DNA of 64,000 nt from a virus. Lineage: Duplodnaviria; Heunggongvirae; Uroviricota; Caudoviricetes. The position numbers and the translations under genes are program-made. Positions within the stretch are counted from its first letter, which is position 1, and each line of letters opens with the position of its first letter. The notes beneath the pieces were generated by a model, which worked only from the letters and a program-made list of their open reading frames with translations, was not told where the DNA came from and searched no databases. The stretch lies in the IMG/VR virus record IMGVR_UViG_3300027798_000013, one strand, 5' to 3'. This document shows, one piece after another, positions 4,657 to 39,908 of the stretch.

Positions 4657-5706
4657 TTGCCTATGCAGAAAATAACTGATACTATGTCATTATGCGAGCA
4701 TTGTTATAGACACGTGCCTGCTGTTAAGTTTGAAAAAGATGGGGCAATTTGGCTAGGCAAGACTTGCCCTAAACACGGATACTTGGAACACTTGGTAGAG
4801 CCAGATGCAGACTTTTATCTAGATTACAATTATCCAAAACACCCATTAACGTCTTATTTCATCGAAGTCACCAATCGTTGTAATTTAACGTGTCCACACT
4901 GTTATCAGTTACCAGACAACAAAAGTGTAGATTTACCAATTGATTATATTGTACAACAAGTGTCCAGCTGGCCAGACGATGGCTATTGTGTATCGTTAGC
5001 TGGAGCTGAACCTACTGTACGAAAAGACTTGGATCAGTTAATTCGAGCAATCAAAGCTATTCCCGGCAAGCCAAGAAGTATTATTGTGTTGACAAATGGT
5101 GTTAATTTGTCTAAAATAGAGTATGCAGAAAAGTTTAAAGACATTGAAGATTTGCATTGGACTATAGGATTGAATCATCCGGATTATCAAGGGCATACTG
5201 TTCGTGCTAAACAGATTCAGGGAATAGAAAATTGTGTCAAGCTAGGATTTAGCATTAAGAATATCAGTTACACGCTAGAAGATTTAGAGCAACTAGAATA
5301 CTGCTTGGACGAAATACACAAATTTTATCCAGATACTTGCAAGCAATTCAGGATCCGAGTTGGCGTTGATATTGGGCGTAATCCAGAAGGCCCGCCTGTA
5401 TACCTCAGTCAGTTGGTCGATGCTACAAAAGATATAGCATTGAAACGCAACTGGACATACAGGGAAAATCAGGACACTGGGATTCGAGCACATTTTCCGA
5501 TATATATTAATAACATATATCTTAAATTAATACAGTGGCCCGATGCTACTACTATTGATATGGATGAGATGCAAACAGAAACCTGGGCTGATTTATTGCC
5601 AGGCAAACCAATTAGTCCTTTAATACACCAAGTTATGTTACGGGATGCAAGTGTCAACAACGGTATGATGTTATACGATGTTGTACCTGAAAGATATAGG
5701 AGATAA
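4657..5706 (+). CDS. radical SAM enzyme with an N-terminal CxxC...CxxH ribbon-like segment
   Basis: CNLTCPHCYQ (CxxxCxxC) about 80 aa in. Upstream are CEHCYRH...CPKHGY, downstream GAEPT and TNG-like motifs. Confidence 0.75.
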   Translation: MPMQKITDTMSLCEHCYRHVPAVKFEKDGAIWLGKTCPKHGYLEHLVEPDADFYLDYNYPKHPLTSYFIEVTNRCNLTCPHCYQLPDNKSVDLPIDYIVQQVSSWPDDGYCVSLAGAEPTVRKDLDQLIRAIKAIPGKPRSIIVLTNGVNLSKIEYAEKFKDIEDLHWTIGLNHPDYQGHTVRAKQIQGIENCVKLGFSIKNISYTLEDLEQLEYCLDEIHKFYPDTCKQFRIRVGVDIGRNPEGPPVYLSQLVDATKDIALKRNWTYRENQDTGIRAHFPIYINNIYLKLIQWPDATTIDMDEMQTETWADLLPGKPISPLIHQVMLRDASVNNGMMLYDVVPERYRR

Positions 5707-5707
5707 A

Positions 5708-6775
5708 ATGAAAATTAGCAAAATACCAGGACTGGGAAGATTTGGAATCTTTATCGATGATGTAGATTTTACCACCATTACCGACGAGGAGTGGATGGAG
5801 ATTGGAAAACTACATTTACAAAATTTAGTCACGATCATACGTGACTGTAAATTAACTTGGGACAAGCAAACTGATTTTTGCACACAGTTTGGCGATACTA
5901 GATACGGTGTTAGATACCTAATACTTAAGAAATATCCAGGCAAAACATTTACACAGATAGCAAGGTTAGCCATGCAAGATGATCCCAGTGTGGATGAGAT
6001 TGATCGTATTAGATTAAAAAGCATATTCAATATGCAAGAACTTACAGCTGACGGAAAACACGTTATGCGAGTCACTGGCAAGAAGGACGAAAACGGTAAC
6101 GCTTTAGGCATGTTTGCAGAAGGTGAGTTATTGTGGCACAGCAACGAAAGCGGCACATTAACATTTACACCGGGCGTAGCATTGTTAGGAGCTGAGAATA
6201 TGATTGGTTCCAGCACTGGATTTTTGACTACACCGGACTACTATGAAAACGTGAGTAATGCGTTTCGTAGTGAGTTGGATGAGATGATCCTAGTACATAG
6301 ATTTACTCCTGGACGTATTAATCCAGGATTGCGTGTGGAGCAAGACGAAGTAATGCATGCCAACATGTGTCCCGAAGATGATATGGAAATACCTATGGTT
6401 ATTACTAGTCCGGGCGGTATTAAAGGTCTACACTATAGTACCAACACAATACACAATATCAAAGGACTTAGTAAAGAAGCCAGCGATGAGATCTTTAAAG
6501 TTATCAATTCAGAATTGTTTGTGGAAAAATACACATATGATCACTGGTACAAAAGCAATAACGATTTTTGTCTTTTTGACAACAGTATTACACTGCACCG
6601 CAGACTAGGCGACATTAAAGACAGACTGTGCTATCGTGTACAACATGATTATAGTAATTTGCAGGACGGATTTTGGCAACCATATTTGCACGAACCAACT
6701 GCTAAAAGATACGAAGAAGAAATCAAATATTATGTTGATCTAGCAAACATTAAGGACTTTAAGTTACCAGCATGA
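5708..6775 (+). CDS. TauD/TfdA-like putative Fe(II)/2OG dioxygenase
   Basis: N-terminal LGRFGIFIDDVDFTTITDEEWMEIGKLHLQNLVTIIRDC...FGD pattern typical of TauD-family N-termini, then WHSNESG. AGGAG sits 7 nt before the ATG at 5708. The track's upstream start overlaps the previous gene. Confidence 0.5.
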   Translation: MKISKIPGLGRFGIFIDDVDFTTITDEEWMEIGKLHLQNLVTIIRDCKLTWDKQTDFCTQFGDTRYGVRYLILKKYPGKTFTQIARLAMQDDPSVDEIDRIRLKSIFNMQELTADGKHVMRVTGKKDENGNALGMFAEGELLWHSNESGTLTFTPGVALLGAENMIGSSTGFLTTPDYYENVSNAFRSELDEMILVHRFTPGRINPGLRVEQDEVMHANMCPEDDMEIPMVITSPGGIKGLHYSTNTIHNIKGLSKEASDEIFKVINSELFVEKYTYDHWYKSNNDFCLFDNSITLHRRLGDIKDRLCYRVQHDYSNLQDGFWQPYLHEPTAKRYEEEIKYYVDLANIKDFKLPA

Positions 6776-7560
6776 GATCCTTTATTACATCAATAATGTT
6801 ACTTGGCGGAGTGATAGCACTATTCAATATCGAATGGTACTGGCTAGTGTTGGCATTGGTTTATACAACAGTGCTTAACGATGTGTTTTGCCATCGCATT
6901 TGCAGTCACGGCATGTTTGAAATTGATACCAAATCAATCACATATAAGATTATGACTTTTCTTGCAAGTGCTGACATGGGTTACGGGCCAGTCAAATGGA
7001 TTGTGATGTCACACAGTTTGCATCATATACACAGCGACAATGGTCCTGAGGACGTTATGAACTGGCGCTACCATTGGTACAGCACCACTATCGTTAGCCC
7101 GTGGCCTCGTAAGGATGTAAAGCCTGCTGACTACGATGACTATTCTAAAAAACAATGGAAGAAGCATGAAGAAATAATGAGAGACCCATGGACTACTTGG
7201 TGCTGTGATAACCAAGTTGCTATTTCTATTGGAACGTTTTTAATTTTAGCCATAGTTTTTCCGTTAGTATTGCTTAATGTAATATTTGTAGGTAGAGTTT
7301 TGCTGAGCGTCATGACTGGGCTTGCAGGATTTGTTGGGCATATTAAAAATGTTCCGGCAAGCTATAGAAATTTTAACACCAACGATACAACATCAAACAA
7401 TATTTTATTACATTATTTGTTCCTAGGAATGTTTGCTGGAATGTTACAAAACAATCATCACGGCCAGCCTAGGTCAGTTCGTCCCAATGCCAAATGGTGG
7501 GAGTTAGATACAAGTTTGCCTTTTGTATTAACATTAAAATATGCCATGGAAAAGAAATGA
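6772..7560 (+). CDS. membrane di-iron desaturase/hydroxylase-like protein
   Basis: Multiple hydrophobic segments. His boxes HRICSHG, HSLHHIHSD and NHHGQP, as in fatty-acid desaturase/hydroxylase family enzymes. Confidence 0.55.
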   Translation: MRSFITSIMLLGGVIALFNIEWYWLVLALVYTTVLNDVFCHRICSHGMFEIDTKSITYKIMTFLASADMGYGPVKWIVMSHSLHHIHSDNGPEDVMNWRYHWYSTTIVSPWPRKDVKPADYDDYSKKQWKKHEEIMRDPWTTWCCDNQVAISIGTFLILAIVFPLVLLNVIFVGRVLLSVMTGLAGFVGHIKNVPASYRNFNTNDTTSNNILLHYLFLGMFAGMLQNNHHGQPRSVRPNAKWWELDTSLPFVLTLKYAMEKK

Positions 7561-8360
7561 TCAAAGGTATCAACAATCTTCCATACTTGGACATGTCTCC
7601 TTATTTGGATATGGATCAGTTTGATAAACTACAGCCTGAGATATTAACAGGTTTTGCACTAGCACGTGAGTATGCTAAAGAAGGTACTTGGATGAAACCA
7701 GGTTTTACTTTTGATGATATGAGTTACCGACTTAGTTGGAAACCTATCTATCAGGCGATGGATGAGTTCATGCAACTGCCAAAAGATGAACCTATATATC
7801 AAGCTGGCATAAAATTAATGCCAACAGATTTTAAAAACTTTCAACAACGCAATAAATTTACACGATTCCTAAAAATGGCTATGAATGCTTACGATCCTTA
7901 CATTTATTATTACCTGTGGGAAGAAGGGTCGTGGGACGATAGAACAGCACCACGTACACTTACTCCTGAAGCAGAATACTTTCCTCATACAGTTAAATGG
8001 GTTGAGAGTTTAGTAGGCACTGTGTTCCAAGATATCGGCCGTGTTATATTCTTTCACTGTGAAGCAGATGGTATTCCTTTTGAACATAGAGATTTAGATG
8101 CTGAGAATGGTGTCAACGTTGTTAAACCACACCGCAACGAGTTTATACACATACGCCCCAACACTAAAAAAGCAATGTATTTGTGGGATCCGGAAACAAA
8201 GGACAAAACATACTTAAATACTAGAGCGGCTTGGTGGAATGATCAAGACTGGCACGGCGGAGAACGTATTATGGAACAAAGTTATAGCTTGCGTGTTGAC
8301 GGCAAGTTTACAGACGAGTTTCGTAAAACTTTAGGTATCGACCATTTGGAGAGTTACTAA
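7557..8360 (+). CDS. hypothetical protein
   Basis: ORF track. The start is moved to the ATG that overlaps the upstream stop (ATGA). Confidence 0.45.
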   Translation: MIKGINNLPYLDMSPYLDMDQFDKLQPEILTGFALAREYAKEGTWMKPGFTFDDMSYRLSWKPIYQAMDEFMQLPKDEPIYQAGIKLMPTDFKNFQQRNKFTRFLKMAMNAYDPYIYYYLWEEGSWDDRTAPRTLTPEAEYFPHTVKWVESLVGTVFQDIGRVIFFHCEADGIPFEHRDLDAENGVNVVKPHRNEFIHIRPNTKKAMYLWDPETKDKTYLNTRAAWWNDQDWHGGERIMEQSYSLRVDGKFTDEFRKTLGIDHLESY

Positions 8361-8914
8361 TGAAACTACTAGGAAATTATGCACACTGGATCAAACAAGA
8401 GTGGATTGATCACATATTAACCAACGATGGATGGGGATTACCAAGAGCATGGGGCAATGATCAAAAAAGTCGTGTTGAGGGTATGATTAGATTATGTGGC
8501 ATGAACGCTTGCGAACGAGCATTGGCCGCAGGATATGATTTCAGCCAAGTCAAGTATCACGTGTATAACAAATCAACTTCCCCATTCGATTTAAAATTTA
8601 CAGATGACGAAGATGACGTCGAATGGAGATTTGTTAAATTAAAACCTGGGGATGTTATGCCTATGCATTTAGACAGCGATATTCCCAATTACACTTGTAG
8701 GAAATATTGGATGCCGTTACAGGATTCTGATATAGGCCATGTGTTTATATGGAAAGACACTGCTATGCTAAATTGGAAGAAAGGAGACCTATTTCAATTT
8801 GATGATGCTAACGAATGGCACGGTGCAACTAATATCGGTTTTACTCCTAGGATTATACTCAACATAAATGTATGGAATCCTGATTTGGATATAATTGAAA
8901 ATGGAATTAATTAA
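8360..8914 (+). CDS. cupin-fold putative oxygenase, paralog
   Basis: MPMHLDSD...EWHGATN. The whole length is similar to the next ORF. Confidence 0.5.
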   Translation: MKLLGNYAHWIKQEWIDHILTNDGWGLPRAWGNDQKSRVEGMIRLCGMNACERALAAGYDFSQVKYHVYNKSTSPFDLKFTDDEDDVEWRFVKLKPGDVMPMHLDSDIPNYTCRKYWMPLQDSDIGHVFIWKDTAMLNWKKGDLFQFDDANEWHGATNIGFTPRIILNINVWNPDLDIIENGIN

Positions 8915-9423: not shown

Positions 9424-10017
9424 ATGTCTGCTTACATAACCGGCGAACATAATTTAACATTCCTCCACATACCCAAAACAGCAGGTACTAGTATACTTGA
9501 TTGGTTGCGTACTAATAAAGGCGATAGTAATATCGTCGAATGGGAAACCCATCCTAAACATTCAGAATTACCGCAGGGAAACACTTCTTTTGCTATTGTA
9601 AGGAATCCGTGGGATAGAATGGTCAGTGCTTATCATTATTTAAAAAACATATCACTACCAGAAGGTAGCAGTTGGCTTGCACTTAATAATATTTCGCAGG
9701 ATAATTTTCCTAACTTTGATGAATGGATTAATAATCTAGCAAACTATAAAAATCCAGATGTATATTGGTTTAGGCCTGAAACACAGCAAATAGAATGGCT
9801 GGATCGGCCAGTAGATATAATTTTAAGATTTGAAAATTTAGCAGAGGAGTTCAGACGGATACAACATCATTATGGATGTTTCGATCCGTTGCCATTATTA
9901 TACGCTACCAAACACGAATCCTATAAAAATTACTACACAGAAAAAACTAAATCGATTGTTGCAAAATTTTCGCAACGTGACATAGATACTTTCAAATATA
10001 GTTTTAATATCCAATAA
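9424..10017 (+). CDS. PAPS-dependent sulfotransferase family protein
   Basis: FLHIPKTAGTSILDWL (5'-PSB-like) and RNPWDRMVSAYHY (3'-PB-like) motifs. Confidence 0.65.
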   Translation: MSAYITGEHNLTFLHIPKTAGTSILDWLRTNKGDSNIVEWETHPKHSELPQGNTSFAIVRNPWDRMVSAYHYLKNISLPEGSSWLALNNISQDNFPNFDEWINNLANYKNPDVYWFRPETQQIEWLDRPVDIILRFENLAEEFRRIQHHYGCFDPLPLLYATKHESYKNYYTEKTKSIVAKFSQRDIDTFKYSFNIQ

Positions 10018-11237: not shown

Positions 11238-11905
11238 ATAATTCTAAACTCCGCTGGCAACATATATTTCAAGATATCTAGTTTATCTTGCTCGATATTA
11301 AATTGTATTGTTAAATCACCTTGTGTAAAATTGTTTATGAATCCTGCTTTGTTTGCTTCATTCAACCAAGCACTCATTGTATTGTCAAACACATACCTGG
11401 CATGGTCGGGACTAAAGGAAGTGAATTGTCCAATGGCAACATCTACTGAATTTTTTAGTTTGTTATTTTTTAATAATTTTCTAACTACCAACTGTGTTCT
11501 AGGAGTACGTCCAAAGTTAGCGGCAGTGTGTAGAAATCCAGCATCCATATCATACCATATGCCATCTTGCAACATTGGATGCATTGTTTCTCTTACTAGG
11601 TCAATTAGATAGCTGTTGTCGCCGCGTATGTTCAAATGATAGCGATCGTCTATATCTGCATGAATTTGGTAACATTGATTGGATCCCAAATTTATTATCC
11701 TAGCTTGTCCCTTAGTTACTGGCAACGAATTGTAAATAGTTTCCCAAACTGTGCCCCTGTATTCATCCTTCAATGTCCACGGATCATAAAAGAAATCGCC
11801 TGTGGGTTGGTTAATGACTGTGGTTCTCATTTCGGTTATAGGCAATTGGTTACACGCCTCTTGCAATAAAACTGTATCGACTGTATAATTAGTTGGAGCT
11901 AGCAT
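11234..11905 (-). CDS. cupin-like hypothetical protein
   Basis: QIHADIDDRYHL motif (HxD...H). Confidence 0.4.
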   Translation of the reverse strand: MLAPTNYTVDTVLLQEACNQLPITEMRTTVINQPTGDFFYDPWTLKDEYRGTVWETIYNSLPVTKGQARIINLGSNQCYQIHADIDDRYHLNIRGDNSYLIDLVRETMHPMLQDGIWYDMDAGFLHTAANFGRTPRTQLVVRKLLKNNKLKNSVDVAIGQFTSFSPDHARYVFDNTMSAWLNEANKAGFINNFTQGDLTIQFNIEQDKLDILKYMLPAEFRII

Positions 11906-11945
11906 AGGAATATTTATGCGCTAGTATAACTCAGTTAAATACTTT

Positions 11946-13208
11946 ATGAATATAAATACTCCCACATTTTGTATGCATCCTTTTACAGGATTAGCTACCA
12001 GAGAAGATGGCGCTATACAAGTATGTTGTCGTAGTCATCCAATTGGTAACATACAAGATAACACTTTGGAAGAAATATGGAACGGGGATAACATGAAGCG
12101 TATTCGTAAGCAAGTGCTTACAGGTTGTAGACCATCAGAATGCGAGCCTTGTTTTAGATTAGAAGATCAAGGTGTAGAGAGTTTGAGACAGCGACACATC
12201 TCGGGTAAGATTCCCGAAGCCCGTATTAATCTATATCCAACGGCTGTTCAATCTATGAATAGTGATTATACCATGCCGTTTGAGATTCCTACCATGGAAC
12301 TTAAACTAAACAACTTGTGTAATCTTAAATGCCGTATGTGCCATCCGGGAGACAGTACCGCGTGGAATGATTGGGCGGAAGTTAAAGAGTTTTACAAAGG
12401 TGAAGGGCAAGTTATATTTGATATTGTTGAAGCACACAATTTAGAAAAGAAACCGTTACTGGATAAGTTTGAAGATAATCCCAATTGGTGGGCAAGTTTA
12501 GAAAAGAACTTGCCATACTTCCGCCGTGTTGAGTTTGCAGGGGGCGAACCCCTAATGGACCCACAGCACTATCGTATATTAGATATGCTTGCACCTTACA
12601 GTGATCAAATTGAAATCAAATATGCCACTAACTTAACTACGCTGGGCAAGAGTAATCGCACCGTGTGGCAATACTGGCCCAAGTTTAAAAGTGTTGCTGT
12701 TAATGTAAGTATTGACGGAATTGGCGCTAGTTACGAATATGTACGAGGTAATGCTAGTTGGTCAGAAGTAGTGAACAATATTAAACAAATACAAACTATA
12801 CCTAATGTAAGCCGCATAGTAGGTGCGGTAGCTGTGCAGGTTAGCAATGTACTCATATTAGATAAAATGATTGAACTGTTCCTCAACGATTTGGGAATTG
12901 TATTCTACACTAATATGGTACAGTATCCCAATGTGCTATCTGCACAGGTTATTCCTAACGAATTAAAATCGCTTGCTGTTATTAAATTAAAAGCGGTTAG
13001 AGAATTAGTTCCGACTTTTAAATTAGTAAAAGAACATCCAATGTTAGAAGCATTAACTTACAAACAGATTGACGGCATAATTAATTTTATACTAGCGAAG
13101 GATAACACACACTTATGGGATGATTGCATAGAGTATAATCGACGCTTAGATGTTACAAGACAACAGAGTTTCTTTGACGTGACTCCGGAATTTGCTTCTT
13201 ACGTATGA
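11946..13208 (+). CDS. radical SAM enzyme, large type with an N-terminal Cys-rich domain
   Basis: CNLKCRMCHP core. N-terminus reads FCMHPF...VCCRSHP...GCRPSECEPC. Paralog of ORFs 16744..18129 and 43940..45136. Confidence 0.8.
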   Translation: MNINTPTFCMHPFTGLATREDGAIQVCCRSHPIGNIQDNTLEEIWNGDNMKRIRKQVLTGCRPSECEPCFRLEDQGVESLRQRHISGKIPEARINLYPTAVQSMNSDYTMPFEIPTMELKLNNLCNLKCRMCHPGDSTAWNDWAEVKEFYKGEGQVIFDIVEAHNLEKKPLLDKFEDNPNWWASLEKNLPYFRRVEFAGGEPLMDPQHYRILDMLAPYSDQIEIKYATNLTTLGKSNRTVWQYWPKFKSVAVNVSIDGIGASYEYVRGNASWSEVVNNIKQIQTIPNVSRIVGAVAVQVSNVLILDKMIELFLNDLGIVFYTNMVQYPNVLSAQVIPNELKSLAVIKLKAVRELVPTFKLVKEHPMLEALTYKQIDGIINFILAKDNTHLWDDCIEYNRRLDVTRQQSFFDVTPEFASYV

Positions 13209-14032
13209 AAATAACAAATCTCGATCCTAAAAAATACAAACGATTTTTTGCATTTGGATGCAGTTTTACCAATTATCAATGGTTGACATGGGCTGATATT
13301 ATAGGACATGATATAGAGTATTATGAAAATTGGGGCAAGCCTGGCGCCGGCAATCATTTTATCTTTAACAGTGTAATAGAGGCCGATGCAAAGTATGGCT
13401 TTGGCAAGGACGATTTGATTATTATCTTTTGGAGCACAAAGGAAAGAGAAGATAGATATCACAACAATGCATGGTTGCGCGATACTCTTCAAACTCAAGA
13501 AAAAACATACGGCAAAGAATGGGCTAAAAAGTTCAGTACAGATACTAGAGGATTTTTAATAAGAGATTTAGCATACATGAAAGCCATTCAAACTATACTG
13601 GAAAATAAAGAATGCGATTGGGCTAATTTTGCATGGTATGAATTTTTTAACAGTGAACAATTAAGAAAATCATTTGAGAATTCTAAAAATAAAGAACCTC
13701 TATTAAAAATTTGGAAAGAGAAAAGCCAAGAAGTTTACAATGGAAAAGATATTGCTGATTTTTTTGATGATCGCGATGCTATTAAACTGTATCAGGATGT
13801 CTTTATCAAAATAGATGCCACTTATAAATGGTTCAATGATGGACGTATTAATTCTAGAGTTGTGCCTGATAACGATGTTCACCCTACGCCAGAAGAAGCA
13901 CTACAATTTTTAGACTGGGTATGGCCAAATAATACAATAAGCAATAACGCTAGGGAACTAGCAAAACAATGGCAACTAAAAATATTTGATACGTTTGATA
14001 CGTTTGATCGTAAACAAGCAAGTAGACTATGA
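13205..14032 (+). CDS. SGNH/GDSL-like hydrolase family protein
   Basis: FAFGCSFTNY (block I), GAGNHF (block III), DNDVHPTP (block V-like). Paralog of 14906..15751. Confidence 0.55.
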   Translation: MKITNLDPKKYKRFFAFGCSFTNYQWLTWADIIGHDIEYYENWGKPGAGNHFIFNSVIEADAKYGFGKDDLIIIFWSTKEREDRYHNNAWLRDTLQTQEKTYGKEWAKKFSTDTRGFLIRDLAYMKAIQTILENKECDWANFAWYEFFNSEQLRKSFENSKNKEPLLKIWKEKSQEVYNGKDIADFFDDRDAIKLYQDVFIKIDATYKWFNDGRINSRVVPDNDVHPTPEEALQFLDWVWPNNTISNNARELAKQWQLKIFDTFDTFDRKQASRL

Positions 14033-14925
14033 TTAAAGTAACCAGTCGTTGGCCGCATCAGGACAGCATCAAGATAGAATGGAATCTTGGTAAACGATGT
14101 AACTACGACTGTAGTTATTGCCCAGCAAGTATACATGATAACTCAAGCCCGCACACTGACATAGAGATTCTTAAATCCACTGTGGACAGACTAATGACAC
14201 TAGGCAAACCCATACGTCTTAGTTTTACTGGAGGCGAGCCGTGTGTTCATCCTAAGTTTAGTGAGCTAGTAAAATACTGTAAACATGTTGGCATTAGTTG
14301 GATCAGTGTGACAACTAACGGAACATTGCCTTATGAATTTTATTCAGTATTGGAAGCGGATCAAATTGTGTTCAGTATACATTTAGAGTTTGACTGGAGG
14401 CGTGTTTTTAATACTGTAGAAAGTGTAGTAGATTTAACCAACAAAAAAGTCATAGCACAAATAATGGCGCATCACGATTATATGGATGCTGTATTACAAT
14501 TACGTGCTAGATGCTTGTTAGCCCATATTCCTAATACTGTAAGACGTATACGATGGACTGAAGGCGACCACGATTTATTTGATGATATGCGTTATAACAC
14601 AAATGATTTAAACTGGCTCAATGAACAAGAAGCCACTGTGGACGGTAATTGTGTAATAGACGGTGAGCAAATAATACACGCTAACGATGTTATTAAATTG
14701 CACCTAAACAAATACAAAGATTGGACTTGCAACGCAGGTATAGAAAGTCTAATGATAAATTGGAACGGGGATGTACACAGAGCGACTTGTAGAGTCGGTG
14801 GTAGTCTTGGCAACATATATGAAGGCAACTTCGTTGCTCCTAGCGAACCTGTAACTTGTGACCGTAATTTCTGTACCTGCGCGGCTGACATTCCACTTAC
14901 AAAATATGCACATACAAACACTTAA
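14029..14925 (+). CDS. radical SAM enzyme, short type with a C-terminal Cys cluster (SPASM/twitch-like)
   Basis: CNYDCSYCP near the N-terminus. C-terminal CNAGIES...CRVGG...CDRNFCTC. Confidence 0.8.
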   Translation: MIKVTSRWPHQDSIKIEWNLGKRCNYDCSYCPASIHDNSSPHTDIEILKSTVDRLMTLGKPIRLSFTGGEPCVHPKFSELVKYCKHVGISWISVTTNGTLPYEFYSVLEADQIVFSIHLEFDWRRVFNTVESVVDLTNKKVIAQIMAHHDYMDAVLQLRARCLLAHIPNTVRRIRWTEGDHDLFDDMRYNTNDLNWLNEQEATVDGNCVIDGEQIIHANDVIKLHLNKYKDWTCNAGIESLMINWNGDVHRATCRVGGSLGNIYEGNFVAPSEPVTCDRNFCTCAADIPLTKYAHTNT

Positions 14926-15751
14926 CCCTTCCAAATACAAAAGACTATTTACTTTTGGATGCAGTTTTACACGATACCTTTGGCCAACTTGGGCAGACAT
15001 TCTTGCAGAAGATATACCATACTATGAAAACTGGGGTTGTGGTGGCGCGGGCAATCTTTATATTTCTAATGCTATTATGGAAGCCCACAATAGGCATACA
15101 TTTACTGAAGATGATTTGATTGTAGTCATGTGGAGTAACAAAAATAGAGAAGATCGATATGTGGATAACAAATGGATGTTAACTCCTGGAGCAATGCTAG
15201 AAGAACGTTACGGGGCTAAATGGATTAAAAAGTTTTACGATGATCGCGGATGCATGATTAGAGATCTAGCCTTGATTCAATCAACGCAACTTTTCTTGGA
15301 TACACTAGACAGTGATTGGATTAACATGTCTATCAATACGTTTGCCAACGGTGATATCGATAAAATAAAAAAAATCGCTCCTGCATACTTGGAAGGTAAT
15401 GCAGATTACCATCAAGAAATTATTGTTCCATTACATCAGGGTGTTATTTCAGACCTGTTTATAGATCGAGATGTTATTGACTGCTATAAAAATGTATTTT
15501 TAAAGTTACAGCCGTCTGTGCTTAATATGTTACAAGATACTAGTGAATACAAATTGCGAGGCCGTCCTAACAAAAGTGATGGACATCCTACTCCTGCTGA
15601 AATTTTAAAATATTTAGATTTAGTATTTCCGGGCAATACCATTAGTTCCAAAGCTAGAGCTTATGCAGAATCATTTGAAGAACAGATATGGTCCCAAAGA
15701 ACTACTACAGAGATTTTTGAATCTAGATCGCAAACAATCATTAGATTATAA
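14906..15751 (+). CDS. SGNH/GDSL-like hydrolase family protein
   Basis: LFTFGCSFTRY, GAGNLY, SDGHPTP. The homologous N-terminus places the start at the ATG at 14906. Confidence 0.55.
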   Translation: MHIQTLNPSKYKRLFTFGCSFTRYLWPTWADILAEDIPYYENWGCGGAGNLYISNAIMEAHNRHTFTEDDLIVVMWSNKNREDRYVDNKWMLTPGAMLEERYGAKWIKKFYDDRGCMIRDLALIQSTQLFLDTLDSDWINMSINTFANGDIDKIKKIAPAYLEGNADYHQEIIVPLHQGVISDLFIDRDVIDCYKNVFLKLQPSVLNMLQDTSEYKLRGRPNKSDGHPTPAEILKYLDLVFPGNTISSKARAYAESFEEQIWSQRTTTEIFESRSQTIIRL

Positions 15752-16747
15752 GTTTGTTAATTCAGGAAATTTTGTCTTAGTTAAATGTGTTTCTGGAATA
15801 CAGGTACAACACTCCATCTGGCACTTTGATTGTTTAAATTCCGGATTGAATATATCGATAAAGTTATTGTCTAAAATATTATATCTTTGATCAAATAGTG
15901 GCTGTCCACACGATCCTTGTATTACTCCGTCCCAGCTTACATAGATAGAATCCAAACCAATATTACAGTCCCAACCTTTAAAATTAGTCCATCCGCGGTT
16001 AACATACGTATTGGGTGTGGCCAGCACTGGAAGAAATTTATCTTCTAACCAGACAATACTTTCAAATATTTTCATAGACCCGTCAAAAATTAAATTATAA
16101 TTTTTTAAAAACCATGCTGGGTTTGGTAATCTTTTTAATTCCTTGGACATATAAGTCTTTTGTACTGTAGTATATGGAAGATATCCCACAACTTCTTTAG
16201 CTAGTATAAACCAAGGATATTTGCTGTGTGCTTTCATATACTCGATAGCATCAACACACGAGTCCCATATAGTTGGATCCATTAATACTAATATTGTTAC
16301 TTTTTTATTTAAAGAATACAGTATATCAGCAACGTCAATCATGTGGTCGATATCACCTTCTTTGACATGATGTGACAATGTTGCATTATCAATTAAGTGA
16401 CCATTTTCTTTCCACCAACGCAAAGTTCTTGATCCGTTTGATGTAACACTTACGTAGACATCGTTTGATTTTTTTATTTCTAAAATAACTTTATCTAAGT
16501 CTTTCCATAATGTTGGCTCTCCGCCGCCTATATCTAGATGAAATTTAGTTTTTCCTAATTTAGTATACTGATTAAACAAATGTCGAAAATTAGAAATTAC
16601 CATACTGGTATCAGTTGGTACTTTAAAGTTGCCTTCATTTGATCCAGGAAAACAATAATCACACTTGAAATTGCATACGTTACTGGGACTCCATCTTATG
16701 TTTAAAATATTAGTCTTGGCAAGAGATTTTATTTTAATCGGGTTCAT
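15746..16747 (-). CDS. radical SAM enzyme, short SPASM/twitch-like type
   Basis: CNFKCDYCFP. C-terminal CNIGLDS...CGQP...CQMECCTC. Confidence 0.8.
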   Translation of the reverse strand: MNPIKIKSLAKTNILNIRWSPSNVCNFKCDYCFPGSNEGNFKVPTDTSMVISNFRHLFNQYTKLGKTKFHLDIGGGEPTLWKDLDKVILEIKKSNDVYVSVTSNGSRTLRWWKENGHLIDNATLSHHVKEGDIDHMIDVADILYSLNKKVTILVLMDPTIWDSCVDAIEYMKAHSKYPWFILAKEVVGYLPYTTVQKTYMSKELKRLPNPAWFLKNYNLIFDGSMKIFESIVWLEDKFLPVLATPNTYVNRGWTNFKGWDCNIGLDSIYVSWDGVIQGSCGQPLFDQRYNILDNNFIDIFNPEFKQSKCQMECCTCIPETHLTKTKFPELTNL

Positions 16748-18129
16748 AGCAAGTGTTCTAATTCAGGAAATACTTCCCTAGCATCTACATTGCGAATAGC
16801 ATCCAAGTTAACAACATACTCTTTAAAGTCTGGCAACAAATGTGTATGATCTTCTGCTTGGATAAATTTTAAGATGCCCTCCCAACGTTTCCAACCGTAT
16901 GGATTATCTTTCCAAAAATTATCATCTTGCCTATAGTTTTCCCACAACCAGTTTTTAAAGTCAGAAAATTGTTGTACAATTTCTTCCTTGTCTGCTTGGG
17001 GTAAAATCCTAGCACTTAAAAATGTTGGTATGTATAACAAGTGTAAGTTGATGATGCCGCCACCAGTTTGGTATTCGTCAAGTGAAAATTTATTAATCTT
17101 TTTAAATCCTTGAGTCAGTTTCCATTTGGCAAAATCGATAATATGCTTAATGTTAAACACTTGCACCGCGCAGGCTATTGCACAATGTACATTATCCGGT
17201 GCGTTATCCATTAACCACAAGCTACGTTCTATATCAGCCCAGTCAGTTGGGTAGCGAATGTAATTGTTACGTTCCATAACAGCATCTATACTAAATGCAT
17301 ATCGAACTTGTTTGAATTGACTCCAAACACTGATAATATCCTCGTTGACAAATATGCCGTTACTGTTATAACGCAAACTGATATTCTTAGCATAGCCACG
17401 ACGAATGATTTCATCTAAAAAGCGTCTATGCTCTTTGATCATTAATGGCTCGCCACCTGCAAAGTACAATTGAGTTATGTTAGGAATCTGTTCAAACACA
17501 TCATCCCAAAACTCTGGTTTTTCATACCATGTGTTATTGAATGATGCTTTATCAAAGCCCACTTGGTGCAACACAATAGTGCTTTTTGTTTTGGCTACTA
17601 GCTTGTCATAGTCTTGTAACCAGCGACTACTGTCATGCGGACTGCACATAACGCATTTTAGGTTACAAGTATGTCCAAGTCTTAAATCCAAGTATCGTAT
17701 AACAGGAGGAACAGCACCAGTATTATCAGTGTCACTGATAAGTTTATTAAAATCAAGACCGTCACGATTCCACTCATACATTTCCCATAAGCGTTTGCTT
17801 ACGACTCCATTGGATTCTTCTTCGAAACATTTTGTACAGCTGGCAGGAACATTACCTGCCAGCATGGTTAATCTCACGCTACGCATATACTGATTGTTAA
17901 ATGCTTCCAAAGGAGTTTCACGACCAAAGTTCGCAGGAGACCCATCTTCTTTTTTGACTAGCCCCACAGTATGATCTCCTGTAGCCGCGCCGCTAGCATT
18001 AGTGACACAACACAATCTAGCATCACCGTTAGGGCGTGTGGCCAAATGAATCCAGGGCAGAGCGCAGAAAGTCTTGCTTCCTGTCTTTTCTTCGATTAAT
18101 TTTACATAACCTTGTATCTTATCCTGCAT
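16744..18129 (-). CDS. radical SAM enzyme, large type with an N-terminal Cys-rich domain
   Basis: CNLKCVMCSP. N-terminus FCALPW...LCCVT...SCTKCFEEE. Confidence 0.8.
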   Translation of the reverse strand: MQDKIQGYVKLIEEKTGSKTFCALPWIHLATRPNGDARLCCVTNASGAATGDHTVGLVKKEDGSPANFGRETPLEAFNNQYMRSVRLTMLAGNVPASCTKCFEEESNGVVSKRLWEMYEWNRDGLDFNKLISDTDNTGAVPPVIRYLDLRLGHTCNLKCVMCSPHDSSRWLQDYDKLVAKTKSTIVLHQVGFDKASFNNTWYEKPEFWDDVFEQIPNITQLYFAGGEPLMIKEHRRFLDEIIRRGYAKNISLRYNSNGIFVNEDIISVWSQFKQVRYAFSIDAVMERNNYIRYPTDWADIERSLWLMDNAPDNVHCAIACAVQVFNIKHIIDFAKWKLTQGFKKINKFSLDEYQTGGGIINLHLLYIPTFLSARILPQADKEEIVQQFSDFKNWLWENYRQDDNFWKDNPYGWKRWEGILKFIQAEDHTHLLPDFKEYVVNLDAIRNVDAREVFPELEHLL

Positions 18130-18967
18130 TTTCTAAATACCTCAATAAAGGGCTTACACCAACTGGACAATTATCTCGCATAGCAATATGTATAGCCGGA
18201 GTAGGAGTCAAGTTGAAATCCTGGCATATCTTAAAATAGTTATCCCCGTGTGTGTTCCACAAGTAATCTGATTTGAAATTTGATAAGAAATGATTTGCTA
18301 TCATGACCGGTGCTCGAAGTAACATGTGAAAATCATTCATTATGCTAATGCTGTCTGGCTGTGTGTGTTTTGTCCATCGTAGCCCTACACGATTCCATCC
18401 TAGGCCCAGTCCTTTACTCAAGCTAATACCTACACTGCGGATTGATGGATGAGATAAATCAAAGTTGATTCCGCGACAGCAAGTAAGCCAAGCGCCATCC
18501 ACATGTACACCGATTCCCTTGTCTTGCGCTTCATCTAATACTTCCTCCATATTGATATGTACTGCGCCAGTGCTAGGAAACGGCATGGCAATTACTAGTG
18601 GTATATTTTCTCGTAACAGTCCTGGTCTAGTTCCCTGGTTACCTAGCCTATCGTGATATCTGTAATCATCAACAAGCACTTGTGGCTGGCATTGCATATA
18701 GATATTGTCAATGTATTGCGTACATCCTTGCATAATATCTATTCTGTCAAAAGTATCCAGTCCGGCTATATTATTAAGTGTACTGTTCTCTAACCAGTTA
18801 GACATGATTTCTTTAAAATCAACATAGACATTGTCCGATATATCTTTGTCCAGGGTTCCATCCAGCACTTCTTGTATAGTTTCTTCTATCAAGTTGTCAC
18901 TAAGAGGTTGCGGGCGTTCAGTTTCTAACCAGCGATCGGAATAGTTGGTTGCTATTTTAATTCTCAT
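18119..18967 (-). CDS. putative PLP-dependent (fold-type I aminotransferase-like) enzyme
   Basis: GVHVDGAW...SLSKGLG resembles the Asp/Lys PLP-binding region. Weak call. Confidence 0.4.
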   Translation of the reverse strand: MRIKIATNYSDRWLETERPQPLSDNLIEETIQEVLDGTLDKDISDNVYVDFKEIMSNWLENSTLNNIAGLDTFDRIDIMQGCTQYIDNIYMQCQPQVLVDDYRYHDRLGNQGTRPGLLRENIPLVIAMPFPSTGAVHINMEEVLDEAQDKGIGVHVDGAWLTCCRGINFDLSHPSIRSVGISLSKGLGLGWNRVGLRWTKHTQPDSISIMNDFHMLLRAPVMIANHFLSNFKSDYLWNTHGDNYFKICQDFNLTPTPAIHIAMRDNCPVGVSPLLRYLENAG

Positions 18968-20033
18968 GTACTACCTGATCTCTTGATTTTCCAAAATCAT
19001 TTATTGGTGCGCGACCACACATCCTGGCACAGGTTATTAAACTGCGTTTGTCCCAGTACTCGTACCACAAGTGTTGATAGCTATCGGACTCTATGATATC
19101 TTTTACGCCAAGTGCTACAGCGTTCAAATTGCCAATGCCGCCAAACGCTTCAACTATATCATGATATTGTGATAACATTTCATATCGCACTTCAGCGGCA
19201 TCATTTTTATCTATAAAGGTATACGGCGCACTTGCTATCCAACAACATGGAAATACATTCTTAAATGCATCTATATATACTGCTCGCTGATTTAGTGCTT
19301 GACAATCAATAACCGATTCGGATACTATTTGCTTGTAAGCATTAATAGCATTCTTGTCGATAAACTTTAAGGGAGTATCGGATGCTGGCTCGATTATATG
19401 TGTGACATTTCCATTCTTATCTAATACATCTACTTTAGGCTCGAGTAGGAAACGAGAACTGTTTTTCATAACAAAACTGGCAAAACCTAGATCCTTGCTC
19501 ATCTGCCTAGCTTTTTCTACTTGATCTTGGTTGTGTTTGAATCTGATAAAACACCATTCAGCAGTTCCGCCGGCGGCAATAAATGCCTTGGCATTTTCTA
19601 TTATATTTTCAAAACTTGTTCCAATACGGTAGACGTTGTGTGTATCACTAAGTCCATCTAACGCAAATACTACTGTGTGGATTTTTGGTAATGCTTTGGC
19701 CAAGTCACTCCACCAGCTGGTAGTTCTAGCACTGCCGTTAGTGTGTATACGCACATTGAGATTGGGATTGGTTTCTGTAGAATATCTACACATGTCGATC
19801 AGTTGTTTGTTCAATATAGGATCTCCAAAATTCCCACAAAAGAAAAAACCGTTTATTTGATTAAGTACTTCGGGAGTCATAATAGTTTTGAAATCTTCCA
19901 AAGACCAATCATTTAATTTTATTAAAGGATTCTCCAAGCCGCCACTACGATTGCGCGAACACATGGGACAACTGGCTTGGCAGTTGTTGGTAATCTCTAA
20001 ATGTACATCTAATAACTCGTTAAAGTGAAACAT
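18957..20033 (-). CDS. radical SAM enzyme
   Basis: CQASCPMCSR at the N-terminus, IHTNGS, FALDGLSDTHNVYR. C-terminal Cys-rich segment. Confidence 0.75.
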   Translation of the reverse strand: MFHFNELLDVHLEITNNCQASCPMCSRNRSGGLENPLIKLNDWSLEDFKTIMTPEVLNQINGFFFCGNFGDPILNKQLIDMCRYSTETNPNLNVRIHTNGSARTTSWWSDLAKALPKIHTVVFALDGLSDTHNVYRIGTSFENIIENAKAFIAAGGTAEWCFIRFKHNQDQVEKARQMSKDLGFASFVMKNSSRFLLEPKVDVLDKNGNVTHIIEPASDTPLKFIDKNAINAYKQIVSESVIDCQALNQRAVYIDAFKNVFPCCWIASAPYTFIDKNDAAEVRYEMLSQYHDIVEAFGGIGNLNAVALGVKDIIESDSYQHLWYEYWDKRSLITCARMCGRAPINDFGKSRDQVVHEN

Positions 20034-31606: not shown

Positions 31607-32407
31607 ATGAAACGTATTTTGACTCTTTCTGTTCTTGCCGCGGCTGTGCTGGCAACAGGTTGTACTCGTATCGAAACTGGTGAAGTTGGTGTGCGAGTTG
31701 GTTTTGATAAACAGGTGCAAAGTGGTGAACTACTTCCCGGTTCTTTTAATCAAAGTATTATTGGTGAAGTACTCACATTCCCTATCAAGGATGTGAACGT
31801 GGTACTGGAGAATATGACCCCAGTGGCCAAAGACAACTCAACCATGAAAGACTTTGATGCTGTGGTTGTCTACAACATCAACCCTGGCCAGGTATCTGAA
31901 CTGTATGCAACCAAGAACAGGAGCTTCCATGCTGAGTTCAAAGGTGATACCTATGTGATGTACAACTACATTGTGCAGAATGCTCGTAACGCTATCTACA
32001 AGGCCGCTCGCAAGTACGAGGCCCTGGACATGGCAGATGCTCGTAGCGACATGGAAACCTTTATCAAGGAAGAAATTGTTCGCAATCTTGCCGAGGAAAA
32101 GTTGGACGGTAGTATCACTATTAGTCAAGTGCTAATCCGTAATATTGTACCAGCTGACTCAGTGGTAGCAAGTGCTAACGAATTGGTCAAGGCCAAGAAC
32201 GAGTTCAAGACTGAAGAAGTCAAAGTGGCCACTGCTCGCAAGCGTAATGAATCGATGCAAGCCAACCCAATGGCAATTCCTTTGTTGCGAGCTGAAGCTG
32301 AAGCTGAAGCTATGCGCAAGTTGCCAGATGCTATTGCCAACTTCAAAGGTCAGACCTTGGTCATTAACGGAGTAGTAACACCTACTGTACAAACTAACGG
32401 AAAATAA
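31607..32407 (+). CDS. SPFH/band-7 domain lipoprotein (prohibitin/HflK-like)
   Basis: Lipobox LATGC followed by IETGEVGVRVGF..., the SPFH N-terminal signature. Confidence 0.65.
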   Translation: MKRILTLSVLAAAVLATGCTRIETGEVGVRVGFDKQVQSGELLPGSFNQSIIGEVLTFPIKDVNVVLENMTPVAKDNSTMKDFDAVVVYNINPGQVSELYATKNRSFHAEFKGDTYVMYNYIVQNARNAIYKAARKYEALDMADARSDMETFIKEEIVRNLAEEKLDGSITISQVLIRNIVPADSVVASANELVKAKNEFKTEEVKVATARKRNESMQANPMAIPLLRAEAEAEAMRKLPDAIANFKGQTLVINGVVTPTVQTNGK

Positions 32408-32417
32408 GGAGAAGATT

Positions 32418-33113
32418 ATGTTTGGTGCAAATTATACAAATGGCGGTATTTTAAATTATCGCTCAGCAGAAGAAATTAATTCGGCCATGGGTCGAGTTTA
32501 CGGACACATGAGTCTGGCAGTTGTTGTATCCATGCTGATCAGTTACTTTGTGGGCACTAGCCCAGAGTTGATACAATTCTTTTTTACAGGTGTACTAAAG
32601 TGGATTGTGATCTTTGCTCCACTGGCGGCCATTTTTGGTGTCAGCTACGTGCTAGGCAACAATCCCAGCAAAGGTGTAGCTCAGTTATGTTTGCATGGTT
32701 TTGCGGCACTTATGGGCTTGAGCTTTAGCATGATATTTGCTGTGTTCAACATGGGTAGTATTGTGTCAGCATTTATGGGTGCGGCAATCCTGTTTGGTGT
32801 AATGAGTGGCTACGGTTACTTTACCAAAAAGGATCTAAGTGGCATGGGACAAATGATGTTTGTGGGATTGATTGCTATTGTGATTGCCAGCATTGTTAAT
32901 ATCTTTATTGGCTCAACTGTCATGCAAATGGTTATCTCGGCATTGGCTATCATTATCTTTTTGGGACTCACTGCTTATGACACACAACGAATCCGTGAAG
33001 AAGTCAGTGTTGACACTAGCCCAGCCGTGGAAGTAACAGGTGCATTATCTTTGTACATGAACTTTATCAACTTGTTCCTAAACTTGTTACAACTGTTTGG
33101 CGAAAGAAAATAA
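32418..33113 (+). CDS. BI-1/YccA family multi-TM membrane protein
   Basis: About seven hydrophobic segments with the YccA-like layout; N-terminus YRSAEEINSAMGRVYGHMSLAV. Confidence 0.65.
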   Translation: MFGANYTNGGILNYRSAEEINSAMGRVYGHMSLAVVVSMLISYFVGTSPELIQFFFTGVLKWIVIFAPLAAIFGVSYVLGNNPSKGVAQLCLHGFAALMGLSFSMIFAVFNMGSIVSAFMGAAILFGVMSGYGYFTKKDLSGMGQMMFVGLIAIVIASIVNIFIGSTVMQMVISALAIIIFLGLTAYDTQRIREEVSVDTSPAVEVTGALSLYMNFINLFLNLLQLFGERK

Positions 33114-33973: not shown

Positions 33974-34396
33974 ATGAAATTCTTCGAACCTTTGCGTGAT
34001 GACCTAATGGTACAGCAACAGATCGCCAATAGTTGGGAACACATGGTAGGAGTCATCATGCTGAACCAAACCAGTCGCAAGCCGGTCAAGCTGACCTTGC
34101 CCGAATTCCTTTATTGGTTTCCTACTCCACATGCACTGATAGATGCTGAAGAAGATTTTGTCAAAAGCATATTAGCTCCTTTGGGTATGGCCAATGTCAG
34201 ATACAATCGATTGATCGGTATGAGTAAAGACTACTTGACCTGGAACGGCGAAGATGCTACAATACTATATGGTATTGGAAAATATGGTAGCGACAGTTAC
34301 GAAATATTTTTCAAACAGAATTATTCTGTAGAACCTACAGACAAAGAATTAAAACGATATTTAGAAGAGGAAATATATGACACAACTAGTACCTAA
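33974..34396 (+). CDS. HhH-GPD-like (endonuclease III superfamily) base-excision repair protein, short
   Basis: MLNQTSRKPV...LFE..PTP..L..AEE...I..LG followed by LYGIGKYGSDSYEIF, which parallels the EndoIII helix-hairpin-helix. Confidence 0.4.
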   Translation: MKFFEPLRDDLMVQQQIANSWEHMVGVIMLNQTSRKPVKLTLPEFLYWFPTPHALIDAEEDFVKSILAPLGMANVRYNRLIGMSKDYLTWNGEDATILYGIGKYGSDSYEIFFKQNYSVEPTDKELKRYLEEEIYDTTST

Positions 34397-34904
34397 TGTA
34401 ACATTCGCATTTCGCGAAGGCGACGAATCACCAGAGGGTGGTGGTTGCCCAATCGGTGGCAAATTTGTTTTCAAAACAACAGATGATTTGTTTGCCAACA
34501 AGCGAGTGGTAGTATTCAGCTTGCCCGGCGCATTTACACCCACATGCTCAACATATCAACTGCCAGATTTTGAAGAACAATACGAAGACTTTAGAGCACA
34601 AGGTATCGATGACATTTATTGTGTCAGCGTAAATGATGCTTTTGTAATGAACGAGTGGGCACGTAGTTTGAACATTCAAAATGTACATCCAATTCCCGAC
34701 GGTGGTTTCAATTTTACACGAGGCATGGGCATGTTGGTTGATATGAGTCACATTGGCTTTGGATGGCGCAGTCGTCGCTATGCGGCTGTAATTGATAATG
34801 GACAAGTACAACACATGTTCATCGAACCAGAAGCCAGCGACACTGATCCAGATCCGTATGGTGTATCGAGCCCAGAAAATGTTATGAAATACCTTAAAGG
34901 ATAA
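34377..34904 (+). CDS. peroxiredoxin (Prx5/redoxin-like)
   Basis: [15 protein letters not shown] peroxidatic-Cys motif in a redoxin context. Confidence 0.75.
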
Positions 34905-34906
34905 AA

Positions 34907-35527
34907 ATGCCTAATCTAGTACCAATGGTAATTGAAAGTGAGCCGAAAGGCGAAAGAGCTTATGACATTTACAGTCGTTTGCTCAAGGACCGTGTGATCA
35001 TGTTGGACACGGATGTCAACGAGCATACGTCCAGTTTGTTAGTGGCACAGTTGCTCTTTTTAGAGAGTCAAGGAAACGAAGACATTAACCTGTTTATCAA
35101 TAGCCCTGGTGGGTCCGTTACTGCTGGCCTTGCTATTTACGATACCATGCAGTTTATCCGACCAGACGTCGCCACTTACGTTATGGGACAAGCCTGTAGT
35201 ATGGGCTCATTCCTTGCTCAAGCCGGCGCACCTGGAAAGCGGTTTGTTCTGCCCGAAGCCCGTACAATGATCCATCGTGTGAGTTCTGGTACTCCTGGAA
35301 CCCGTGGTACAGTACACGTACAGGAATTGGAATTTGAGGACGCAAAACGTAGTTTTGAAGAATCTAAGCGTATTAACGAACGCCTAACTGAACTGTATGT
35401 CAAGCACAATACCGCTGGAAAAACGTATAGTCAGCTGTACGAAGCTATGAAGTTTGACACGTTTTTGAGTGCCAAAGAAGCAGTGGAATACGGGTTGGCT
35501 GACAAAGTCATTGAAAAGCGTCCGTAA
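34907..35527 (+). CDS. clpP: ATP-dependent Clp protease proteolytic subunit ClpP
   Basis: Similar along the full length to ClpP: [35 protein letters not shown] (active-site Ser), MIHRVSSG. Confidence 0.85.
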
Positions 35528-39071: not shown

Positions 39072-39908
39072 ATGAGATCGCATTATTGGACTATTGGAAA
39101 ATTTTCAGACTGGCTTCGCGGCACACCCAAGCTCAAGTGTGGCACTAGCGAAGAATGGGATGCCTGGTATAAGACTGCTGAAAAAGCACATCCTATCCGT
39201 TACTGGATTGCCGAAGAAGGTCTAGACCACCTTCAAAAATTTGTTTACTACATACCGGACAAGCTAAATGACATACGCTATTATATTAACAATCGCTGGG
39301 TTACTCACAGCCATGCTCTTACCGCCCATCCTCGAGACATACAGCCGGGCAACTGGAGTGATGTGGGCAATCGCTTTCTTCCTTGTCTTTTCAATGAGCT
39401 TGTTAATTTTGTTGAAATAGAACAAGCGTGGCATCACTGCTTGTGGAGTGATGAAGCCAAGACCCAATTCAATGTGCCTTGGTACCGCACTGGTTGGCTA
39501 CGACTACGTACATGGCGCAGTCCAGAAGCCGGCATGGAATATTTGAAATGGGCCAGTGAACTCACTGTTGGCGAGGACATGGGTGCTGAACCTGGTAGCG
39601 AAGGATTTGGGGAACCGACCTGGCAAGCCAAAAGTGCTAAGGAAATTATTGAGCTTTACACTTGGTGGACTGTGACCTATCGCGCTCGTCCAGACCCGCA
39701 TAACGCCAGTGGCTGGAGTGCGTACTGTGAAGCAAGCCGTATTGCCAACGGCGGCAAACTAAGTTGGAGTAGTGACAAGAGCCCTGAACTCAAAGCCATG
39801 AGCGATGCCGCACACAAAAAGCTACAAGAAATCGAAGTGGCTTACGAAGCAGAAGATGAAGCCATGATGATTCGTCTTATCAAAATACGTCAAAGTCTTT
39901 GGACCTAA
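39072..39908 (+). CDS. hypothetical protein
   Basis: ORF track. Confidence 0.5.
   Translation: MRSHYWTIGKFSDWLRGTPKLKCGTSEEWDAWYKTAEKAHPIRYWIAEEGLDHLQKFVYYIPDKLNDIRYYINNRWVTHSHALTAHPRDIQPGNWSDVGNRFLPCLFNELVNFVEIEQAWHHCLWSDEAKTQFNVPWYRTGWLRLRTWRSPEAGMEYLKWASELTVGEDMGAEPGSEGFGEPTWQAKSAKEIIELYTWWTVTYRARPDPHNASGWSAYCEASRIANGGKLSWSSDKSPELKAMSDAAHKKLQEIEVAYEAEDEAMMIRLIKIRQSLWT

Follow-up and report, generated by a model that had tools for sequence, protein, structure and literature searches.

The SPASM and twitch domains of radical SAM (rSAM) enzymes are defined in reviews as C-terminal extensions (PMC9012708, PMC6231123). The published SPASM motif comprises seven Cys residues, CX9-15GX4C-gap-CX2CX5CX3C-gap-C (PMC6231123), and the twitch, or half-SPASM, domain has the first four of these Cys without the other three and binds one cluster, according to the definition of Grell, Goldman and Drennan (PMC6231123). 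The order of structural elements described for SkfB and BtrN is β1'-β2'-(β3'-α1')-α2', with Cys residues on both sides of the hairpin and past α2' (PMC6231123). For the auxiliary cluster, a role as acceptor of an electron from the substrate radical was proposed for BtrN and anSME and was directly observed for AuxI of SuiB (PMC9012708). [quoted passage not shown] Among marine viruses, 12 rSAM genes have been reported in one T4-like genome, and the same study counts ClpP with the Fe-S-related viral genes (Nishimura et al. 2017, PMC5332604).

The window analyzed here is a 64,000-nucleotide stretch of DNA from the IMG/VR virus record IMGVR_UViG_3300027798_000013 (Caudoviricetes), and its viral nature is indicated by matches to structural and tail-fibre-like proteins and by a QueD-like gene. 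The DNA from 11900 to 18200 gave no match to isolated phages, and a protein search against isolated phages returned only distant matches, to Ralstonia phage RsoM2USA and Vibrio phages K566 and K567, with 22–23% identity. The window contains 11 rSAM genes in total. An initial annotation, made from the sequence, had listed six of them as sharing a Cys-rich N-terminal domain; when the window open reading frames (ORFs) of 250 aa or more were searched with a hidden Markov model (HMM) of the six proteins, exactly six full-length matches resulted, the same six. The region first annotated, 11946–12260 (+ strand), corresponds to codons 1–105 of a 420-aa ORF. In the alignment, overall identity among the six paralogs, denoted A to F, was 21–28%.

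The six genes and their motifs were located by pattern search and confirmed by a translation check. Two of the genes stand apart from the others. Paralog A (11946–13208, + strand, 420 aa) has its twitch motif, running from C9 to E73 and including C9, C27/C28, C66 and C69, at 11970–12164 (+), and its rSAM motif CNLKCRMC (C125, C129, and C132) at 12318–12341 (+). Paralog B (16744–18129, − strand, 461 aa) has its twitch motif (C22 to E105) at 17815–18066 (−) and the rSAM motif CNLKCVMC at 17644–17667 (−), and the insert between its hairpin Cys and the CxxC is 19 residues longer. The remaining four genes form a tandem array on the + strand. Its first gene encodes paralog D (39899–41308, 469 aa; twitch motif C39 to E107 at 40013–40219; rSAM motif CNLKCSYC at 40349–40372), followed by paralog E (41295–42644, 449 aa; twitch motif C24 to E92 at 41364–41570; rSAM motif CQFACSYC at 41709–41732) and paralog F (42631–43950, 439 aa; twitch motif C32 to E98 at 42724–42924; rSAM motif CNLACAYC at 43054–43077). 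The final gene of the array encodes paralog C (43868–45136, 422 aa from a TTG at 43868), with its twitch motif (C31 to E103) at 43958–44176 and the rSAM motif CNLKCRSC at 44294–44317. Translation of paralog C could plausibly begin instead at an ATG at 43940, which would give a protein of 398 aa.

The gene boundaries show that the domain is indeed N-terminal in these proteins. Paralog A starts 40 nt past a gene on the opposite strand. In the array, the stop and start codons of adjacent genes overlap, and the frame of each of D, E, F, and C differs from that of the preceding gene. The possibility that the N-terminal domains are C-terminal tails of the preceding genes was ruled out, as the frames differ and a stop codon intervenes, while A and B stand alone. 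The literature places the twitch domain behind the rSAM (β/α)6 core, toward the C-terminus; in these proteins, the domain was found upstream of CxxxCxxC in 6/6. Judged from the gene sequences, the putative twitch domain lies ahead of the catalytic barrel, and not behind it, in all six genes. The initial annotation was right that a stretch of sequence precedes the CxxxCxxC site, but its estimate of roughly 100 residues was too short, the site starting at residue 125–155.

A regular expression, C-x12/13-G-x4/5-C-x31..50-G-x2-P-x2-C-x2-C-x3-E, described the N-termini of all six paralogs. The motif spans 65–84 residues and is followed in every paralog by a linker of 39–51 residues before CxxxCxxC. 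Alignment of the six N-termini revealed nine invariant residues, C9, G22, C27, R54, G60, P63, C66, C69, and E73 in the numbering of A. The alignment could have contradicted the claim of a common Cys pattern; instead, the Cys positions were conserved in 6/6 paralogs, the four Cys being invariant despite the low paralog identity. The two variants described earlier were also recovered, with CC in A, B, and C, and SC(H/Y)H in D, E, and F (SCYH in D, SCHH in E and F). The spacing of the first Cys pair is x17–x18 and not x15–17, as had been noted.

To place this pattern in a wider family, conservation was examined in 150 representatives of 50%-identity clusters drawn from 1.84 billion proteins, which provided 155–174 domain instances. 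Among 155 near-full-length domain instances, conservation was 98, 97, 100, and 100% for the four twitch Cys and 100% for each Cys of the rSAM site. These seven, four twitch and three rSAM, were the only conserved Cys columns across the 155 diverged domains, in which neither the stretch past the CxxC nor the C-terminal region has a conserved Cys. Judged by these alignments, the four-Cys pattern is far beyond chance, because the Cys are kept among paralogs of 21–28% identity and are conserved family-wide. The motif of the six paralogs corresponds to the first four Cys of the seven-Cys SPASM motif, with the remaining three missing; no conserved second-cluster motif CX5CX3C...C was found across the 155 domains, so a second (AuxII) cluster would not be expected. 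In most of the family, D, E, and F included, the second ligand Cys is surrounded by conserved His residues, in the form G-x-T-H-S-C-H-H-P-x-x-H.

Profile searches assigned the domain to a curated family. The NCBIfam model NF033640, 'N_Twi_rSAM, twitch domain-containing radical SAM protein', matched 6/6 paralogs at 236–382 bits (A, 336.8; B, 382.1; C, 281.1; D, 312.4; E, 295.9; F, 236.1), against a curated cutoff of 170, and covered the proteins from model position 1 or 2 to positions 392–397 of 398. In paralog C, the match begins at residue 27. The isolated N-termini (115–137 aa) matched positions 1 to 85–111 of the model with E values from 3e-17 to 5e-27. We read the 'N_' in the family name as denoting N-terminal position; this is our own reading of the name, and it fits the architecture. 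The Pfam SPASM model (PF13186, gathering score 21.5) matched residues 9–69 of A (E 2e-10, 38.4/41.2 bits) and residues 31–99 of C (E 3e-9, 33.6/37.3 bits), scored just under the gathering score for B (18.9 bits), and did not match the N-termini of D, E, and F. The N-terminus of A also aligned, weakly, with the C-terminal SPASM portions of several classical family models, among them TIGR04311 (positions 347–391 of 423) and TIGR04317 (274–313 of 349), which is direct evidence that the same module occurs at the other end of classical rSAM/SPASM proteins. As for the catalytic core, CxxxCxxC is present in 6/6 and GGEP is invariant; PF04055 (Radical_SAM) scored above its gathering score in A and B only; C to F fell short of it (23.5–25.8 against 29.5 bits) but are covered by NF033640.

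Other comparisons were less informative about the N-terminal domain. A profile of the full-length alignment, searched against PDB sequences, retrieved rSAM cores only (best E 2e-6), with the N-terminal domain in none of the best stretches listed. A comparison within the window was meant to show the relocation inside one genome. With hhalign, the N-terminal profile aligned to the whole short rSAM proteins 14029, 15746, and 18957 on their rSAM CxxxCxxC regions; against isolated C-terminal Cys-rich tails, those of 14029 and 15746 aligned in the expected register, but with a probability below 4%, which is not significant.

The structure of paralog A was predicted with AlphaFold2 from a 33-sequence alignment (pLDDT 89.3, pTM 0.89). 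In the model, strands at residues 15–18 and 23–25 form a hairpin and are followed by a strand at 32–35 and helices at 41–45 and 48–58, with C66 and C69 opening a further helix at 64–74. The resulting predicted order, β-hairpin, β3', α1', α2', and then CxxC, matches the published twitch topology. The best PDB matches of the full-length model were all rSAM enzymes of the SPASM/twitch subgroup (SkfB, GDGT-MAS, CteB, BlsE, DesII, SuiB, MoaA, and anSME), with TM scores of only 0.3–0.38, and none of the PDB matches to the model was a solved structure with an N-terminal twitch architecture. The suggestion of the initial annotation that a SPASM/twitch motif has been relocated to the N-terminus is supported by the Pfam SPASM and NF033640 matches, the SPASM-model alignments and the predicted fold. 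The relocation may amount to a true circular permutation, in which the cluster would keep its place in space relative to the barrel.

These observations are best explained, and we think quite probably, by rSAM enzymes of the SPASM/twitch subgroup with an N-terminal twitch domain and one fully Cys-ligated auxiliary [4Fe-4S] cluster that acts as electron acceptor or relay. The twitch half-domain and the 39–51 residue linker would precede the (β/α)6 core, which bears CxxxCxxC and GGEP, and the helical region at the C-terminus has no conserved Cys. Of the four Cys, the first precedes the hairpin, the second closely follows it and the other two form the CxxC after α2'; together they would most probably ligate one auxiliary [4Fe-4S] cluster completely, as those of BtrN do. 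If BtrN, anSME, and SuiB are a guide, the 5'-deoxyadenosyl radical would generate a substrate radical with which this cluster exchanges an electron, as acceptor or as relay, and the cluster would have no direct part in substrate binding. Because the paralogs form arrays and adjoin other rSAM genes, a sulfotransferase gene, an APS-kinase-like gene and oxygenase genes, they may act in turn on a single substrate, a small molecule or glycan, each adding a radical tailoring step while the virus infects its host. The analysis shows the motif, its conservation, the homology to SPASM/twitch domains, the predicted fold and the family membership; which metal is bound, whether each of the four Cys is a ligand, how the cluster is built, its part in electron transfer and the substrate class are what we infer from these.

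The same four Cys could also be part of a twitch Fe-S cluster with an open iron site, resembling MoaA and SkfB, in which one Cys or the flanking His residues are non-ligating and the substrate attaches directly to the unique Fe, so that the cluster would do more than pass electrons. The twitch clusters of MoaA and SkfB have an open coordination site, SkfB despite a conserved fourth Cys (PMC6231123); the pre-hairpin Cys of SkfB is present yet is not a cluster ligand (PMC6231123), and four conserved Cys therefore do not prove four ligands. Because of the CC doublet in A, B, and C, either C27 or C28 could be the ligand, and the His residues conserved beside the second ligand Cys in most members hint at a more elaborate site; these His could reflect different ligation, another metal or a role in substrate binding. 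Against this, the twitch Cys are as strictly conserved (97–100%) as the rSAM ligands, which agrees with complete ligation of the kind found in BtrN and anSME, so that one fully ligated [4Fe-4S] cluster is expected rather than a MoaA-like open site. We regard the open site as rather unlikely.

A second alternative, also raised by the initial annotation, is that the four-Cys module is a zinc ribbon or treble clef, a structural Zn2+ site with a stabilizing or docking function only and without an auxiliary Fe-S cluster. Four Cys including a CxxC are able to bind Zn, and another rSAM protein of the window (4657–5706) has a true zinc ribbon at its N-terminus (PF23545, E 3e-14), such that fusions of this kind do exist here. 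Searched against PDB sequences, the N-terminal profile weakly matched C2H2 linkers of the form 'TGEKPxxCxxC' (best E 0.0014), but these matches cover just some 30 residues and lack the His pair, and they were rejected as homology. A zinc ribbon or C2H2 finger would have two knuckles; the domain has a single CxxC knuckle and no His pair, and no ribbon-like structural matches were found. The zinc ribbon and C2H2 finger were rejected on the predicted fold and the motif, and we consider a purely structural Zn site very unlikely. Finally, a peptide-recognition domain resembling the RRE of RiPP maturases, with incidental Cys, is scarcely credible: N-terminal RREs are common among SPASM/twitch rSAM enzymes (PMC6231123), and PqqD-like and M16 peptidase neighbors occur at two and four bacterial loci, respectively, but the model of A has no winged-helix fold, the N-termini have no PqqD/RRE family match, and the Cys are the most conserved residues of the domain, so that predicted fold and conservation contradict this reading.

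The family to which the six proteins belong is large. At E ≤ 1e-30, 6,095 clusters at 50% identity match the family, and relatives are encoded by 590 of the 600 records among the IMG/VR pattern matches listed. In a set of 81 loci, comprising 80 IMG/VR loci of at most 21 kb and the window, at least two paralogs were present in 68 and at least four in 26, with a maximum of seven. Bacterial assemblies, mostly metagenome-assembled genomes (MAGs), with arrays of 4–7 paralogs include Flavobacteriales, Bdellovibrionia, Legionellales, and Haliscomenobacter, and single copies occur in Streptomyces and other actinomycetes. Fused family proteins of 800–1,400 aa, containing two or three copies, also exist. 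Arrays of 2–7 paralogs are typical in viral contigs and bacterial assemblies, and the six-paralog set is not special to the window.

Genome neighborhoods offer hints about the substrate. Near the first rSAM island of the window, at 1–22 kb, are genes for a sulfotransferase, an APS-kinase-like protein, a TauD-type oxygenase, two Asp/Arg-hydroxylase-type oxygenases and a fatty-acid-desaturase-like protein. Around bacterial loci of the family, the most frequent neighbor families among 129 ORFs, given as raw counts with no background normalization, were GT2, GT1, and other radical SAM proteins (6 each), NAD-dependent epimerases (4) and sugar-nucleotide dehydratases resembling GDP-mannose dehydratase (3). 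These neighbor families are a weak hint toward sugar or glycan substrates, while the PqqD and M16 peptidase neighbors at a few bacterial loci point to peptide substrates. The twitch enzymes BtrN, DesII, BlsE, and SpeY act on sugar and aminocyclitol substrates, and the sugar lean of the neighbors fits these. The paralogs also neighbor other rSAM genes and genes of 2OG and di-iron oxygenases. Genes for ClpP and a peroxiredoxin are present elsewhere in the window.

As a tentative and rather doubtful proposal, the N-terminal twitch enzymes might constitute a distinct, domain-permuted subclass whose paralogs jointly run a virus-carried, multi-step radical tailoring pathway. In the window the target could be a sulfated sugar, glycan or lipid, because the sulfotransferase, the APS-kinase-like gene and the oxygenases adjoin, and the His-rich site S-C-H-H-P-x-x-H beside the cluster might support chemistry that C-terminal twitch enzymes do not show.

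The specific finding in the window changes little, as the domain is what the initial annotation had guessed and the family model is already curated. Its wider interest is that the literature sees this domain as a C-terminal extension, while a very large, virus-enriched and array-forming family has it in N-terminal form. The structure of one member would tell whether domain order affects the position of the auxiliary cluster, and knowing the substrate would account for the presence of about a dozen oxygen-sensitive radical enzymes in some marine viruses. Searches of the literature and the PDB for the N-terminal twitch form or NF033640 found no paper, biochemistry, solved structure or assigned reaction. 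The architecture, which the initial annotation had called unusual, is so with respect to the experimental literature, where the domains are C-terminal, but not as a kind, since a curated NCBIfam family exists.

Several known systems invite comparison. The T4-like marine viral genomes of PMC5332604 resemble the window, with its 11 rSAM genes and ClpP, in gene content; that study counts rSAM genes and does not describe the N-terminal twitch architecture. BtrN (PDB 4M7S and 4M7T), a twitch rSAM dehydrogenase of about 250 aa, has its twitch domain C-terminal to the core, whereas that of the window proteins is N-terminal; BtrN is also without the C-terminal helical bundle, and its sequence likeness to the paralogs is limited to the rSAM core. 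The SPASM rSAM enzymes anSME (4K36), PqqE (6C8V), CteB (5WGG), and SuiB have three extra Cys (CX5CX3C...C), an AuxII cluster and a C-terminal domain, whereas the window family conserves four Cys only and has the domain at the N-terminus. [quoted passage not shown] By these profile matches, the architecture is one already catalogued by NCBI, and the six proteins can be classed as new viral members of a known family.

Conserved His residues flank the second cluster-ligand Cys in most members of the N-twitch family, including paralogs D, E, and F among the six radical SAM (rSAM) proteins of the window (A–F) that carry a four-Cys twitch domain N-terminal to the barrel. The consensus around this Cys is G-x-T-H-S-C-H-H-P-x-x-H, and the site is located at 40067-40087 in D, 41418-41438 in E, and 42778-42798 in F. 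The CC variant, to which A, B, and C belong, is the minority form, present in 45 of the 155 near-full-length domain instances from representatives of 50%-identity clusters. The His residues near the second ligand Cys could provide an extra ligand, act as a proton relay, or contact the substrate.

Assignment of start codons probably affects the first cluster Cys in many database entries. Many database versions of A homologs (411 aa; P0049, P0079, and others) start at the internal Met of the 'FCMHPF' motif, and the first cluster Cys is therefore missing from these entries, which slightly reduces the apparent conservation of C9, the first twitch Cys of A. The start codon of these entries has probably been miscalled. 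Paralog C has an ambiguous start, either TTG 43868, which opens the longest ORF, or ATG 43940, which was picked in the initial annotation. The overlap with the F gene is 83 nt if TTG is used, but 11 nt if ATG is used, the latter being close to the 14 nt by which D overlaps E and E overlaps F. Counted in the longer ORF, the family-model match of C starts at residue 27, two residues past ATG 43940.

Tandem occurrence of two to seven N-twitch paralogs was found in viral contigs (loci L044-L123) and in bacterial MAGs (loci L005, L007, L009, L015, and L037). In addition, homologs P0161-P0310 include two- or three-copy N-twitch fusions, forming proteins of 800-1,400 aa. These tandem fusions would be candidates for the intermediate type needed for a duplication-and-truncation route to circular permutation.

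The rSAM island is flanked by a sulfotransferase (Sulfotransfer_2) and an APS-kinase-like P-loop protein (9424-10017 and 20033-20824), accompanied by a TauD-type oxygenase, two Asp/Arg-hydroxylase-type oxygenases, and a fatty-acid-desaturase-like protein (1349-2002, 5678-6775, 6772-7560, and 8360-8914). As a group, these genes resemble a pathway tailoring a small molecule or glycan that is sulfated and oxidised. Two paralogous ORFs (13205-14032 and 14858-15751), each adjoined by an rSAM gene, share 42% identity across 272 aa and an '(A/T)FGCSFT' motif at their start; neither has a Pfam or PHROG match.

Auxiliary genes of the window encode an SPFH/Band 7 protein (31607-32407), a Bax-inhibitor-1 membrane protein (32418-33113), a peroxiredoxin (34377-34904), ClpP (34907-35527), an ATP-dependent DNA ligase (37374-38699), a QueD-like 6-pyruvoyl-tetrahydropterin synthase of the 7-deazaguanine pathway (49304-49819), and a UvdE UV endonuclease (49982-51004). 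From 52234 past the window end (beyond 64000) runs a single Thr-, Ser-, Gly-, and Ala-rich open reading frame, at least 3,922 codons long, that probably encodes a giant virion protein resembling a fibre or adhesin.

Altogether, the 64-kb window contains 11 rSAM genes, six encoding the N-twitch proteins and five encoding others. One of the latter (4657-5706) carries a true N-terminal zinc ribbon (PF23545, Zn_ribbon_HMPTM), three (14029-14925, 15746-16747, and 18957-20033) have a Cys-rich tail at the C-terminus, the canonical twitch position, and the fifth is located at 20821-21783. For comparison, 12 rSAM genes have been reported in one T4-like marine viral genome (PMC5332604).
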